This document shows, one piece after another, positions 2,596 through 32,812 of a stretch of DNA of 64,000 nt. The translations under genes and the position numbers were made by a program. The DNA comes from Bacillota bacterium (GTDB lineage Bacteria > Bacillota > Desulfotomaculia > Desulfotomaculales > VENG01). Position 1 is the first letter of the stretch; each line of letters opens with the position of its first letter. Location: assembly GCA_009711705.1 (NCBI GenBank), contig VENG01000008.1, positions 99,535-163,534 of the forward strand, in the 5' to 3' direction. Under the pieces are notes generated by a model, which was not told the DNA's origin, did no database searches, and saw only the letters and a list, made by a program, of their open reading frames with translations.

Positions 2596-3318
2596 TTAAA
2601 GATTGAGGTTGGGGGTTATTTTTTCCTGAACATATTGAAAAAAGTCTTCGATGTCGTCGGTGATCTGTTCTGTAGCACTGGAGATTAGTTTGGCCACTTC
2701 AACGGTGTTAATTTGCACTCCATGCCTGGTAGACATTTGCGTGCCGTATTTTTCGGCCAGTGTTTTCGTTGTAATTTTATGGGTTTCTATATAATGTGGA
2801 AAGGCAGCTATTCTCCGTTGTAGAAAGGAAATGCCGGGGCATATGTGGGGCAGCTTGCTGCCAAGATACCGAATAAAATCATTGTTTATACACGCCTTTT
2901 GGATGATGTCTCCATAACGGTTATCTTGGCAGACGTGAAGTTCCACTGCCATTTCCACTATGTTATGTGCCTTCCACCAGCCCATCTGCTCGGGAATGTT
3001 GCAGGCGCGCATGGTTTGATTAACCAGCGGGCGTGCTTTCTCAAAACAATAGCCGCGCTCGTATTCCAGGTACTTTTCATCCCCGAAAAAGTCCAATCCG
3101 TTTGGTTCTATGCCGTGAGTAATAACTCCCCGGATAAAGTCAAGCAGTTCCTTTTCCGTGTTTAAATGATCCATAAGCAAAGTGCCCAGGCTGTGTGCTT
3201 CCTTGTGCTGTAATTTAGGGTTAATGATCATGTCCGGAAAAATACTTCCCAGGGCAAGCTCGTCGGACATATGCCCCAATACTCTTTGGGCAAAATAAAC
3301 GTGAGTTTGAGGAAACAT
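2596..3318 (-). CDS. hypothetical soluble His-rich protein
   Basis: Intact 240-aa ORF with an ATG start. I cannot name a family with confidence. Confidence 0.4.
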   Translation of the reverse strand: MFPQTHVYFAQRVLGHMSDELALGSIFPDMIINPKLQHKEAHSLGTLLMDHLNTEKELLDFIRGVITHGIEPNGLDFFGDEKYLEYERGYCFEKARPLVNQTMRACNIPEQMGWWKAHNIVEMAVELHVCQDNRYGDIIQKACINNDFIRYLGSKLPHICPGISFLQRRIAAFPHYIETHKITTKTLAEKYGTQMSTRHGVQINTVEVAKLISSATEQITDDIEDFFQYVQEKITPNLNL

Positions 3319-3403: not shown

Positions 3404-4918
3404 ATGTCTAAGACTTTATTACGAACATCTTCTATACTTTTTGTTCTCTTTGTAGCCAGCAGGATACTGGGGTTTATAAGAGAACAGGTGGTGGCTGCGT
3501 ACCTGGGGGCGACGCCCCAGTCAGACGCCTATGTGGTGGCCGCTACCATTCCCTTTATACTATCATACATCATTGGCACTGCGGCGGGAAACTCATTTCT
3601 GCCGGTCTATACCGGTAGGTTGGGTGATAAAGATGCTAACCGTCTGGCCTCTACGGTATTTGTAATCTTTGGCGGCGCCGTGGTTTTGATTTGTGTCGGC
3701 GGTTTCCTTTTTGCCCCCTACCTGGTGGATTTATTGGCACCGGGCTTTGCCGCAGATGTACGATCCCTGGCGGTTGTGCTTACCAAAATAATGTTACCGG
3801 GACTTGCCTTTTTGACTTTGGGGTACGTGGTGAAAGCAGCGCTGAATGCCCACCGCCAATTTACGGTTCCGGCAGCGGCTCCGGCTTTGCAGAACATTGT
3901 CTTCATTATTCTGCTGCTCTTTTTTGCCCAAAAAGGGGCGGTAGGATTAGCATGGTCTATGCTTGCCGGGACAGTGGTATTTTATTTGGTGCAGCGAATT
4001 GTGGCCGGGAATTACGGCATTACCTGGCGCCCGCAATTGGATTTTAAAGATCCGGATGTGCGGCGGGTAATGGTACTGGCGGTGCCGGTAATTTTGACCA
4101 CCCTGGGTACCAAGGGGTATATCTTTCTGGACCGCTGGCTGGGCTCACAATTAAGTGGCGGCAGTATTGCCGCTTTGAACTTTGCCGACCGTATCAGGGA
4201 ACTTCCTTACGGATTGTTTGTCGCTGCTGTTTCTACTGTGCTTTTTCCCACCCTTGCTTCCGCGGCAAGCAAGCAGGATATGCAATCTCTGCGTAAAAAC
4301 ACAGCCATGGGTTTGCGCATGGTGGCCATGCTGGGTTTTCCCGCGGCGGTACTGCTGTCGTTACTGGATCGCCCGGTGGTACGACTGCTCTTTGAGCGGG
4401 GTGCCTTTGATGCTGTGGCCACTACTGCTACGGCCGGGGCCCTGGGCTTTTATGCAGTATCGGTAATTGCGCTTTGCGCCAATTCCATTATTACATATAC
4501 TTTTCTGAGCATGCAGGATGGCATAATTCCATTGAAAATAGGGGCTGCGGCCCTGGGGGTTAACCTGGCGGCTGATTTGCTGTTGGTGAACCGCATGGGC
4601 CATGTGGGGTTGGCTCTTGGTAATACCCTTGCTGCTTTTTTTGCCATGTTTTTATTTGTGTCGTTACTGAGCAGGAGGCTGGAAGGTTTTGCTTGGCAGG
4701 GACTATTGGTCTCTGTTTTTAAAATAGGTATAGCTGCCGCTGTACTGGGTGTCATAAGTGTGGGCCTTGCCCACTGGACCGGCCTTTATAATCAGAACAT
4801 TTCGTTGTTCAGCCAAATTTGGGGATTAGGATTGTCTGTAGGAGTCGGCGGCTTGGTGTACGTTGCACTTTTGTTTGTGTTTAGGATAGAGGAGACCCGC
4901 ATGTTTTCGGGAAGATGA
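3404..4918 (+). CDS. murJ: lipid II flippase MurJ/MviN
   Basis: 504 aa, about 14 TM helices. N-terminus SSILFVLFVASRILGFIREQVVAAYLGATPQSDAY is typical of MurJ. Confidence 0.85.
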   Translation: MSKTLLRTSSILFVLFVASRILGFIREQVVAAYLGATPQSDAYVVAATIPFILSYIIGTAAGNSFLPVYTGRLGDKDANRLASTVFVIFGGAVVLICVGGFLFAPYLVDLLAPGFAADVRSLAVVLTKIMLPGLAFLTLGYVVKAALNAHRQFTVPAAAPALQNIVFIILLLFFAQKGAVGLAWSMLAGTVVFYLVQRIVAGNYGITWRPQLDFKDPDVRRVMVLAVPVILTTLGTKGYIFLDRWLGSQLSGGSIAALNFADRIRELPYGLFVAAVSTVLFPTLASAASKQDMQSLRKNTAMGLRMVAMLGFPAAVLLSLLDRPVVRLLFERGAFDAVATTATAGALGFYAVSVIALCANSIITYTFLSMQDGIIPLKIGAAALGVNLAADLLLVNRMGHVGLALGNTLAAFFAMFLFVSLLSRRLEGFAWQGLLVSVFKIGIAAAVLGVISVGLAHWTGLYNQNISLFSQIWGLGLSVGVGGLVYVALLFVFRIEETRMFSGR

Positions 4919-6058
4919 GAGATTTTAGGGTCGCTGCTTAAGGGTTAAAGTTCTTTTTTCGACGGGATTAACGGGATGTGCGGGATTAGTGATGGTGCTG
5001 TTTATTATTTGTTTGCTTAAATAGATGCTTATTTTTTATCATAACAGTGCTAGTAATAAAAGAAATTTAATGGAAATATAGGTTATAAAAAATCCTGGAT
5101 AAAGAAATCTAGGGTTACTGCTTAAGGGTCAAATCTTATTAGATAGATTAGTGATAAGTACTATGTACTGTTTGTTTTCCTTAGTTGACCAACTTTTTAC
5201 TATGACAGTGAGTACTTAAAAGAGTTTTAGTTTTTAATATGTTTTTAAAAATCCTGCTATCCTGTAATCCTGTCAGAAAAGAGACCCCAAAGAATTACAT
5301 GCAAATCTTTTAGATCTTAGAAAATAAATCTTGCCTTACAATCACAGTAAATAAAGCTTTACTGACTTACGTATCTTTAAATCCCACTAATCCCGTAAAT
5401 CCCGTCAAAACTCACATGAAACATATACACAAACTAGAATGAAAATTTATTTTCGTAAAAAAAATAGCAAAGATACAAGATTGTCATTCTGAGTGCAGCG
5501 AAGAATCTGAGTATTTATGCGACTTTTAAGATTCTTCATTTCACTTCGTTTCATTCAGAAAATGACATGAATCTGGACTTTTTCAGCAGTCCCGGACGAG
5601 TCCTCTTGCTTCCTTGCTTAAAAGTATTGTTTGGGTCTTGGCTTATGGGTCTTTTTTTCTTTGACAGGATTACAGGATTTGCAGGATGCTTTGGGGTCAT
5701 TGCTTTTGGGTCTTTAAAAGCATTTTTAAATTGTTTGCTTTAGAACTTTGGACTTGTCCAAAGCTCTGTTTAGATGATAAAGGCTTTCGATTGAGTTTTT
5801 ATTTTTTAAAAAATCCTGTTGATCCTGTTAATCCTGTCTAAAAAAATTGTTTGCCTCAAAGCCCCACATGCAAAGCCTTTTATCCCGCTTATCCCATTGA
5901 TCCCGTCAAAACTCACATGAAACATATACACAAACTAGAATGAAAATTTATTTTCGTAAAAAAAATGACCCAAAAGAACTACTTGCAAATCTTTAAATCC
6001 CACTAATCCCATAAATCCCGTCAAAAAACTGACCTCAAAGAACTACATGCAAATTCTT
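4919..6058. repeat. ORF-free intergenic region filled with copies of a ~60-65-nt unit (triple 9-nt sub-repeat WWATCCYRY + GTCAAAA + GACCYCAAAGAAYTACATGCAAAT)
   Basis: Forward triples at 5249..5280, 5379..5410, 5811..5846, 5880..5911 and 5995..6027; reverse triples at 4961..4987 and 5660..5687. No ORF >=60 aa in the supplied track. Confidence 0.85.
5483..5566. repeat. 84-nt imperfect palindromic element
   Basis: GTCATTCTGA..GAAGAATCT (5483..5508) pairs with AGATTCTTC..TCAGAAAATGAC (5529..5566). Confidence 0.7.
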
Positions 6059-7012
6059 TTACACCTTAGCCAAAGCCGCACCGTTAGTGTAATTAAACAG
6101 CCGGCCCTGGTAAGTATCTTTTGCCTCCAGCAACTCCTCAATAGCCTGCCTTAACTTCCACCAGCTCACATCCCAGTTGGAGAAAAGCACCTTTTCCGCC
6201 GGGCCCTTACCCACCAGGCGCTGTACCACTATCTCAGGGTCCAAATACTCGAGGAAAGTAACAACCCTCTGCGCATACTCCTCCAGGGAAATCATGTCAA
6301 ATTCCCCCTTCCGGTACATTTCCCCCAATACAGTGTCCCTTACCACATATAAAGAATGAAACTTTACATAGTCACTGTGCAGGACCGAAATCAGCTTAGC
6401 GCCTTCTACTATATCCTCCCGGCCATCCCCAGGGAGATTGAGAATTAGGTGGGTACAAATTTCAAACCCACGTTGTTTTGTACGCAGTACCGCATCCACA
6501 TATTCTGCCAGGGAATGCCCCCTGTTTATCCTGTGCAGGGTGTGATAATTCACGGTTTGCAGGCCCAGCTCAATATTAATATTCAAATTATGCTCTTGCT
6601 GCAGCCCGTGCAAATAATCCAGGTAGGCATCTGATATGCAATCGGGCCGGGTAGATATGGAAATACCTATTATGTCCGGTTCTTCCGCTGCCGCCTGCAT
6701 GTTTGCTTTAAACTGTTCTAATGGAAGATATGTATTGGTAAATGCCTGGAAGTAAGCGATAAACTTTTGGGCCTTAAATTTCTTTTTAAAGTTGGCCTTA
6801 TTGGTTTGCAGTTGGTCCTTTACGGCCAGGCTGTTGGGCAGGGCATCAAAGCCAGAGCCTTCTTCATCACAAAATATGCATCCGCCCCTGCCCACGGTTC
6901 CGTCCCGGTTAGGGCAGGTTCCGGGCAAATTTACAGGGAGTTTGTAAACTTTACACCCGAATTTTTCTTTCAAATGTTTGGAATATGTTCTGTACCTTTC
7001 TTCAGGCTGCAT
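6059..7012 (-). CDS. radical SAM protein, YhcC/TIGR01212-like
   Basis: CPNRDGTVGRGGCIFCDEEGSG cluster motif near the N-terminus; 317 aa. Confidence 0.75.
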   Translation of the reverse strand: MQPEERYRTYSKHLKEKFGCKVYKLPVNLPGTCPNRDGTVGRGGCIFCDEEGSGFDALPNSLAVKDQLQTNKANFKKKFKAQKFIAYFQAFTNTYLPLEQFKANMQAAAEEPDIIGISISTRPDCISDAYLDYLHGLQQEHNLNINIELGLQTVNYHTLHRINRGHSLAEYVDAVLRTKQRGFEICTHLILNLPGDGREDIVEGAKLISVLHSDYVKFHSLYVVRDTVLGEMYRKGEFDMISLEEYAQRVVTFLEYLDPEIVVQRLVGKGPAEKVLFSNWDVSWWKLRQAIEELLEAKDTYQGRLFNYTNGAALAKV

Positions 7013-32334: not shown

Positions 32335-32812
32335 TTTAAAAGTAAAGCATTACTTTGGGGTCATAATTATTTTTACGAAAATGCCCGGGATATATGGGAT
32401 TTTTGCATGCGTTCTTACTGTTTTTTGATATAAAAACATCTTAGGTATTCCTTTGGGGTCGTTTTCTGACAGGATTAACAGGATTTGCAGGATTTTTTTT
32501 TGAGCAGGATCATTACTTTGAGAGCGTAGATACTTCATGGTTTTAAAAGAGCACCATTAATTTAAAACAATGACTTATATTTATGAGATAGAATCGAAAT
32601 GAAAGTATTTATTAATAATTCCATTGCAGATAAACTTCATTGCTTATCCTGTTAATCCTGTAAATCCTGTCAAAATGTTTTTCTTTGTCTTTATTTTTTG
32701 ATTTTATCCCTATCCTTAATCCTATACCATGTCTTAATCCCTTTCCTTTTTCTTTTCTTTACGGAAATAGTTTGAAGGAAATAACTGTTTCCCGGTCGAA
32801 AATTTTCTTATT
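32335..32812. repeat. second locus of the triple-9-nt repeat family, between comEA and comEC
   Basis: Reverse triple 32466..32494 and forward triple 32644..32675 match in 24 of 29 positions as inverted repeats. Tail fragments at 32355..32420; degenerate copies at 32700..32745. Confidence 0.8.

Follow-up and report, generated by a model that had tools for sequence, protein, structure and literature searches.

The gap at positions 4919–6058 of a 64-kb stretch of DNA (the window) probably holds accumulated gene-less copies, both solo arms and inverted pairs, of a repeat that belongs to a cassette built around a small GxxExxY-family nuclease gene. The nuclease is the putative driver of this accumulation. 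The window comes from a Firmicutes metagenome-assembled genome related to Desulfoscipio and Desulfallas. The repeat unit (the arm) consists of three tandem ATCC(T/C)GT heptamers with a 9-bp spacing, ending in C-N-AAAA, and the full form of an outward-facing pair of arms around one GxxExxY gene, which is predicted to encode a PD-(D/E)XK nuclease.

The gap lies between the convergent genes murJ (3404–4918, +) and a radical-SAM gene (6059–7012, −). The identity of MurJ is backed by Pfam and by homologues, and the radical-SAM gene was named from its syntenic orthologues. A sequence-only reading had described the gap as free of open reading frames (ORFs) and highly structured, and this description was borne out. 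No ORF of ≥60 aa was found between the two genes, where stop codons occur in every frame. The triple motif ATCCYRY-nn-ATCCYRY-nn-ATCCYRY was found seven times in the window (five times in 4919–6058 and twice at 32469–32670), compared with 0 in 100 shuffles. The two-unit version was found 15 times, with 0.02 expected. Two more arms with an 8-nt period were read straight from the sequence at 5251–5274 (+) and 5663–5687 (−). The total was seven arms in the gap and two near 32.5 kb.

The arm and its partner gene

One genome per prokaryotic species was scanned with the pattern ATCCYRYnnATCCYRYnnATCCYGTC, and at least 120 stretches matched. The arrangement, context and host list given below rest on 120 loci among the matches listed, and copy totals and taxonomic range are lower bounds. 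The arm consensus was nnATCCTGT-nn-ATCCTGT-nn-ATCCTGTC-N-AAAA (142 matches among those listed). The heptamer positions carried 1.4–2.0 bits, the A-run was conserved and nothing was conserved beyond it. The consensus heptamer is given as ATCCTGT because the degenerate positions of the pattern were overwhelmingly T, G and T. As nothing beyond C-N-AAAA was conserved across the matches, the 24-nt tail that follows the arms in the window is lineage-specific; it is also carried by a relative (L124). Hence, only part of the ~60–65-nt unit proposed earlier is general: the arm with C-N-AAAA is widely conserved, and the tail is limited to this lineage.

The bacterial hosts among the matches listed included Verrucomicrobiota, Planctomycetota, Lentisphaerota, Kiritimatiellia, Chlamydiota, Chloroflexota, Desulfobacterota, Acidobacteriota, Gemmatimonadota, Bacteroidota and beta- and gammaproteobacteria. 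The archaeal hosts included several Methanoperedens and Methanosarcinales genomes. Cultured isolates (Gemmata algarum, Botrimarina colliarenosi and Thiobaca trueperi) and plasmids of Spirosoma, Thiodictyon and Rhizobium carried the arm as well. No real match was found in phage records, and no arm was found in 5,426 E. coli genomes. With many bacterial phyla and Methanoperedens/Methanosarcinales as carriers, the repeat is not confined to the two loci of the window. Collagen-like Gly-X-Y coding repeats on the opposite strand also satisfy the pattern, make up many of the matches in viral contigs and were rejected as false positives (viral contigs L128, L132, L139, L195, L197 and L203, and also L111). 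This reading is irrelevant to the window because the gap has stops in all frames.

The heptamer was expanded to microsatellite-like arrays of 6 to >15 units (ATCCTGTCC or ATCCCGTCA) at L144, L168, L201, L205, L193, L073 and L004; such arrays occur in some genomes and viral contigs. A second repeat that likewise spans phyla, with a period of 9 nt (CGTGnnCTT, two to three times, ending CGTGGTGAA), was located directly outside the arms at L041, L052, L049 and L032 and at 3140–3290 of L122. At L052, the inverted symmetry ran on into this repeat, which gave composite palindromes.

Adjacent arms showed a preferred order. Of 89 adjacent pairs, 56 were reverse-then-forward, with the GTC ends outward, compared with 13, 12 and 8 for the other orders. 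Because 46 of these 56 pairs were only 11–75 nt apart, the typical element is a palindrome of ~70 nt. The arms were mostly intergenic, with no orientation bias relative to the flanking genes. Copies in Methanoperedens had a loop sequence in common and hence arose by copying; their boundaries were the GAC...GTC ends. The T-run and the A-run belong to the inverted repeat.

Four reverse-then-forward pairs were 374–473 nt apart (L001, L007, L040 and L104), and all four enclosed one ORF of ~125 aa with the motifs GFLESVY, ...VELK... and LLNFG. The enclosed ORF scored 145 bits against NCBIfam TIGR04256 (GxxExxY protein) and 139 bits against Pfam PF13366 (PDDEXK_3). The L040 copy was a pseudogene with an in-frame stop. 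Even longer pairs (1.2–3.9 kb) were checked for a transposase and enclosed only junk repeats, toxin–antitoxin genes and a lipoprotein. In an all-against-all BLAST of 836 ORFs from the 120 loci, no shared neighbour gene family was found, the ORF filter having dropped the GxxExxY genes, and no transposase was enriched near arms in the same set.

For the reverse test, 80 metagenome loci were picked by similarity of the GxxExxY protein alone, and arms were sought within 200 nt on each side, with as many as 5 mismatches allowed. An upstream reverse arm was found for 46 of 78 evaluable genes and a downstream forward arm for 53 of 77; both were present in 35 cases. At the same threshold, shuffles of the 64-kb window gave 0.4 matches on both strands together, so the chance of an arm per gene side is ~7e-4 (<0.001). 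The association of arm and gene therefore holds both ways, from arms to gene and from gene to arms. Two layouts were seen: the gene within a single palindrome, or a whole palindrome on either side of the gene. At L315–L322, a cassette was part of an apparent defence island (DUF1156, AAA_15/DUF3696, a 166-aa ORF, GxxExxY and HEPN_Swt1/DUF499).

The GxxExxY family is large, with 33,003 clusters at 50% identity (E up to 0.001) and 11,980 at 1e-10. The PD-(D/E)XK active-site residues D66, E76 and K78, together with E27, were all invariant. Sequence-based detection found no solved structure of a relative. An AlphaFold model built from 46 sequences had a mean pLDDT of 88.7, and on this model the protein is predicted to adopt a minimal PD-(D/E)XK fold. 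The nearest solved structures were Cas4 (SSO0001), LHK-Exo, lambda exonuclease and the AdnAB nuclease domain, with TM-scores that were modest (0.4–0.55). Tandem double GxxExxY domains occurred in proteins of 250–295 aa (P0361, P0365, P0368, P0369 and about 20 others). The sole functional statement on the family found in the literature lists its function as unknown and describes multiple transfers, with clades of mixed Bacteria and Archaea (PMC3424549). This patchy cross-domain spread matches that of the arm. Nothing on flanking repeats or mobility was found in the searchable literature on GxxExxY/PF13366.

Copies in the window and at orthologous sites

The copies in the window are listed below with their strand; mismatches to the consensus and the repeat families (D, direct; I, inverted) are given in brackets.

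4925–4960 (−): lineage-specific tail (TAGGGTCGCTGCTTAAGGGTTAAAG) and T-run, outward of reverse arm 1, read from the sequence; recurs at 5110–5133 with 88% identity (D6)
4961–4986 (−): reverse arm 1, ATCCCGCACATCCCGTTAATCCCGTC, 43 nt past the murJ stop (1 mismatch)
5078–5133 (no strand assigned): truncated start of a forward arm, AAAAAATCCTG (5078–5097), then a tail-only fragment (5110–5133) (D4, D6)
5251–5306 (+): forward arm with 8-nt periods (5251–5274), A-rich linker and tail GACCCCAAAGAATTACATGCAAAT (5283–5306), read from the sequence; inverted repeat with 5657–5678 at 91% complementarity (I5)
5381–5465 (+): forward arm (5381–5406), CAAAA and a 55-nt segment, CTCACATG...AAAAAAAAT (D2)
5625–5720 (−): reverse arm with 8- and 9-nt periods (5663–5687), tail 5625–5661 and an adjoining tail-only fragment 5688–5720 (D5, I5, I6)
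5813–5881 (+): forward arm with the exact cross-phylum consensus (5813–5838), TAAAAAAA and a diverged tail (0 mismatches)
5882–5990 (+): forward arm (5882–5907), CAAAA, second 55-nt segment (5912–5966) and tail (5967–5990) (D2, D3)
5997–6058 (+): forward arm (5997–6022), CAAAAAA and tail (6031–6054), up to the radical-SAM stop codon at 6059–6061; read from the sequence
32349–32493 (−): second locus, in the interval between a comEA-like and a comEC-like gene; degenerate reverse copy at ~32349–32397, reverse arm 32468–32493 and tail CCTTTGGGGTC
32646–32675 (+): forward arm with the exact consensus (32646–32671) and CAAAA

All coordinates that had been given earlier for the forward and reverse copies, the tail and the tail-only fragments proved accurate, and the second locus (given as 32335–32812) was found with one reverse and one forward arm. 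The arms at 5813–5838 and 32646–32671 had 0 mismatches to the 142-match consensus, and the rest had 1–3. The tail GACCYCAAAGAAYTACATGCAAAT was present three times (5283–5306, 5967–5990 and 6031–6054), and a looser core, GACCCNWAAG, followed most arms of the window. Three outward-facing pairs were found (4961/5251, 5663/5813 and 32468/32646), with gaps of 125–264 nt, which is above the usual 11–75 nt. The pair at the second locus was 152 nt apart and 140 nt upstream of an 806-aa ORF. Between its forward arm, on the 3' side, and this comEC-like ORF, just upstream of it, a degenerate run of units was found at 32690–32760 (TTATCCCTATCCTTAATCCTATACC...TTAATCCCTTTCC).

The 55-nt segment between arm and tail was doubled: 5411–5465 equals 5912–5966, with 94% identity over the 85-nt D2 repeat. 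Part of the apparent nesting, judged from families D2, D3 and D6, is local segmental duplication. Each 55-nt copy also holds the gap's sole match to a sigma-70-like promoter (CTCACA-18-TAGAAT, 9/12). An independent assembly of the same organism (L123, Logan contig SRR9198947_221) stopped 354 nt past murJ, inside the repeat cluster, which is consistent with repeats breaking short-read assemblies.

We checked folding and transcription signals in the gap. The folding z-scores of six segments ranged from −2.95 to +1.40. Only an imperfect hairpin at 5477–5570 (TGTCATTCTGAGTGCAGCGAAGAATC...CAGAAAATGACA; −26.8 kcal/mol, z = −2.95), unrelated to the arms, was significant. Across many phyla, sequences of this type are met as spurious ORFs that read SEAKNL or LRMT, and the Chloroflexota locus L003 has a GC-rich version next to its arms. 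Single units in the window folded no better than shuffles, and the arms were without self-complementarity. Promoter-like sites (2 vs 4.4 in shuffles) and terminator-like sites (1 vs 1.2) showed no excess in the gap.

These results bear on the suggestion that the units act as genes for small RNAs or as a sponge RNA. Three ACAGGAU units are read on the reverse strand, comparable to the CsrA-binding GGA repeats of CsrB/RsmZ. The likeness of CAGGAU to motifs bound by CsrA and the distance of 18 nt from unit 1 to unit 3 speak for this suggestion. The lack of folding, of an excess of promoter- or terminator-like sites, of strand or orientation bias and of an Rfam match even at the relaxed threshold argues against it. 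To our knowledge, archaea and Bacteroidota, both hosts of the arm, lack CsrA. We consider this explanation very improbable, and the proposal of small RNA genes in the sequence-only reading was not supported.

A replication origin or a DnaA-titrating cluster in the AT-rich, ORF-free gap was also considered. The 9-mers begin with (T/A)(T/A)ATCC, occur on both strands of a 1.1-kb AT-rich gap and look like DnaA boxes (TTATCCACA vs TTATCCCGC). The cumulative GC skew climbs steadily through the region with no inversion, and the conserved 3' half of the 9-mer is TGT or CGT, not ACA. These two observations effectively refute the idea. Moreover, neither dnaA nor dnaN is a neighbour, the flanks being murJ and the radical-SAM gene, and the same arms are dispersed in many copies, archaea included.

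The synteny around murJ was conserved in relatives. The spacer between murJ and the radical-SAM gene varied from 38 to 1140 nt, with 0–7 arms (identities are those of MurJ to the window):

L126, 69%: spacer of 175 nt, no arms, a GC-rich hairpin instead
L125, 73%: spacer of 38 nt, one reverse arm
L124, 82%: spacer of 336 nt, two reverse arms and one forward arm
Window: spacer of 1140 nt, seven arms

The number of arms at the orthologous murJ locus thus differs among relatives. Three of the four genomes (the window, L124 and L125) had a reverse arm immediately 3' of murJ, and in L125 it was the sole element between the two convergent genes. In L124, a forward arm with GACCCGAAAG was found at the position matching 5997–6058 of the window. 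The full cassette was also present or absent at an orthologous site, namely in an ABC-transporter operon. In L305 and L335/L336, the order was ATPase, arm, GxxExxY, arm and binding protein; in L334, 62 nt separated the ATPase from the binding protein (83% identical), without the cassette.

Pairing of arms, proposed mechanism and alternatives

The 2-nt spacers between heptamers were compared for 74 arm pairs from L001–L120 and L225–L304. In the straight register, the spacers of paired arms matched at chance level (0.39 vs 0.35). In the register slipped by one unit, the match was 0.49 vs 0.357 (standard deviation 0.032; 0 of 5000 permutations). The slipped register would allow two alternative perfect 16-bp stems, each with one heptamer unpaired. 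This fits either a slipped hairpin as the substrate of a single-strand nuclease or RNA pairing that frees a ribosome-binding unit. The heptamers themselves are conserved by sequence, as expected of protein recognition.

The array may be read by a protein, and a host DNA-binding protein, nucleoid-associated or of the ribbon-helix-helix type, would be one candidate; the role of the arms would then be regulatory or architectural and unrelated to mobility. The three near-invariant heptamers with a fixed 9-bp spacing, free 2-nt spacers and both direct and inverted copies speak for this. The layout resembles the operators of ribbon-helix-helix repressors (the WATCACW heptads of omega and the met-boxes of MetJ), where two to five contiguous 7–9-bp boxes in direct or inverted order are each read sequence-specifically. 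Those operators, however, are found at promoters of defined regulons and by or under the control of a repressor gene, whereas the arms have no such gene or regulon, and no common neighbour gene or regulator emerged from the 836 ORFs. The arms are instead tied specifically to one gene family, itself a nuclease, and their copy number is unstable at orthologous sites. We know of no single DNA-binding factor common to such patchy cross-domain hosts. Such a host-protein array unrelated to mobility is improbable. The protein-binding array suggested earlier is nevertheless compatible with the data and probably part of the same answer, given the near-invariant heptamers and spacers that do not co-vary in the straight register.

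A role of the arms mainly as RNA, within the expression unit of GxxExxY, is another alternative. In compact copies, the upstream arm ended 0–8 nt before the ATG, in the form ACAGGAT-(5–8 nt)-ATG (for instance, ACAGGATgggttATG, ACAGGATgcagatATG and ACAGGATG). The last ACAGGAT is hence placed like a Shine–Dalgarno sequence. The upstream arm would serve as the ribosome-binding site, with which the downstream complement would pair in the transcript. Pairing of this kind could shield the ends of the mRNA, hide the ribosome-binding site or form an RNase III site by which the cassette is insulated from a host operon. On this view, solo arms and palindromes without a gene would be remnants, or else hairpins kept because they stabilise the 3' ends of neighbours, as proposed for repetitive extragenic palindromic (REP) sequences. 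The slipped match suggests selection for pairing, cassettes are located within operons with spacers of only 2–50 nt, and the arm immediately 3' of murJ in three genomes would agree with this role. Several observations are difficult to reconcile with it. Gene-less copies have no orientation bias relative to flanking genes, deletion of a gene between inverted repeats yields no clean short-loop palindrome, and the short-loop palindromes share loops within a genus and therefore replicate as units. Moreover, single arms are without structure, and the conservation of the heptamers is far stricter than pairing alone requires. We regard an RNA-level role as the main function as rather unlikely.

The gene-less copies of the nuclease cassette remain our preferred explanation of the gap. 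By analogy with REP doublets (REPINs) and the REP-associated tyrosine transposases (RAYTs) (PMC3733652), the heptamer arrays may be recognition sites of the nuclease, and we infer that it mobilises the arms. The enzyme would cut at the arms or close to them, with a slipped hairpin or a cruciform as a possible substrate, and repair or recombination would then duplicate arms, preferentially beside existing ones. The outcome would be gene-less palindromes in the manner of REPINs or MITEs (miniature transposable elements with inverted repeats), and pile-ups such as that at 4919–6058. In this Firmicutes lineage, the arm has gained its own outer extension (GACCCNAAAG...) and local segmental duplication has enlarged the cluster; a permissive convergent spacer would have been the site of accumulation.

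Several observations weigh against this explanation. Neither a GxxExxY gene nor a remnant was found in the 64-kb window (tblastn and a six-frame profile search) or in four related loci, so that action of the nuclease in trans is only putative in this genome. Around 40% of the sampled GxxExxY genes were without canonical arms, which more distant members often lack. On a Fusobacteria plasmid (L331, pZRK30-1), the gene was located between direct repeats of ~50 nt ending CAGATTTAATCCGTGTACCTAT(T/C)AAAA, and on a Persicobacter plasmid (L333), degenerate forward AATCC arrays were found on both sides of it. Target-site duplications flanked neither the Methanoperedens copies nor the compact full-length cassettes. 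The presence or absence of the cassette in the ABC-transporter operon fits gain or loss alike. A context look-up of three exact GxxExxY proteins found one genomic context each across many samples and no recent transposition; any mobility must be slow, as these proteins keep single contexts. An arm placed at the ribosome-binding site is just as compatible with a role at the RNA level. Finally, we know of no PD-(D/E)XK nuclease of this size that mobilises DNA alone.

Known systems and meaning of the repeat

REP sequences form super-families, some of which are common to several phyla (PMC3733652). Like REPINs with their RAYT (REPtrons), the arms are short multicopy intergenic repeats, mostly inverted doublets with a short spacer, with a small nuclease gene between inverted copies and no target-site duplication. 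They differ in that a REP unit is a hairpin with a GTAG or CGTC tag, whereas the arm consists of three tandem heptamers without self-complementarity. RAYT is an HUH/Y1 transposase, usually present in one copy, whereas the arms flank a PDDEXK_3/GxxExxY nuclease, and the arm has almost the same sequence in different domains of life. Although the last bases of the arm are CGTC or TGTC, an assignment to CGTC-tagged REPs was rejected, because the definition by a stem of 8–9 bp and a loop of 4–5 nt (PMC3733652) is not satisfied.

The likeness to MITEs is in the terminal inverted repeats around a short non-coding core, the dispersed intergenic copies, the longer relatives that carry a gene and the varying presence at orthologous sites. 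Small non-autonomous elements with inverted repeats, as suggested by the sequence-only reading, are the best fit as far as the pairing, the gene-bearing longer pairs and the variable spacer are concerned. The other marks of a MITE, target-site duplication and a DDE transposase partner, were not seen; the longer relatives of gene-less pairs encode a PD-(D/E)XK nuclease, not a known transposase. Moreover, half of the arm copies are solo, and tandem sub-repeats make up the inverted repeat itself.

Free-standing homing endonuclease genes, the PD-(D/E)XK enzyme I-Ssp6803I included, are likewise minimal nuclease cassettes between host genes, even within operons. They lack both repeat arrays on their flanks and multicopy derivatives without the gene, and no homing site was identified here. 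In the intervening sequences of 23S rRNA, which are patchy and multi-copy in similar genomes, a small ORF in the loop of a long inverted repeat resembles the cassette. The location in rRNA helices, the four-helix-bundle protein and the stem sequences differ, and processing by RNase III has been shown for them.

A dedicated nuclease gene with selfish palindromic repeats linked to it is a kind of element already known. Three features appear to be undescribed in Rfam and the searchable literature: the arm of three tandem heptamers, the PD-(D/E)XK partner in place of an HUH transposase, and the near-identity of the arm from Firmicutes to Methanoperedens. Rfam gave no match for the window and six perfect-palindrome loci at gathering and relaxed thresholds, with only chance-level ones at E up to 5. 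An exact-sequence literature search for the triple motif and two neighbouring repeat families returned only primer coincidences.

In practical terms, the motif accounts for assembly breaks, such as the end of the Logan contig past murJ, and for recurrent spurious ORFs reading NPVNPVNPV or DRINRINRI. It marks a class of intergenic DNA that is still nameless in annotation pipelines and Rfam. For the large GxxExxY family, a gene-tied DNA motif is the first lead and makes binding and cleavage of ATCCTGT arrays a biochemical hypothesis. More broadly, and only tentatively, GxxExxY proteins may be the dedicated enzymes of an unrecognised class of selfish elements in Bacteria and Archaea that read ATCCTGT arrays and spread both the cassette and gene-less palindromes; we rate this wider proposal as possible rather than probable. 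Should the nuclease indeed drive the repeats, the REPIN/RAYT lifestyle would have been reached a second time by an independent route, one common to Bacteria and Archaea.

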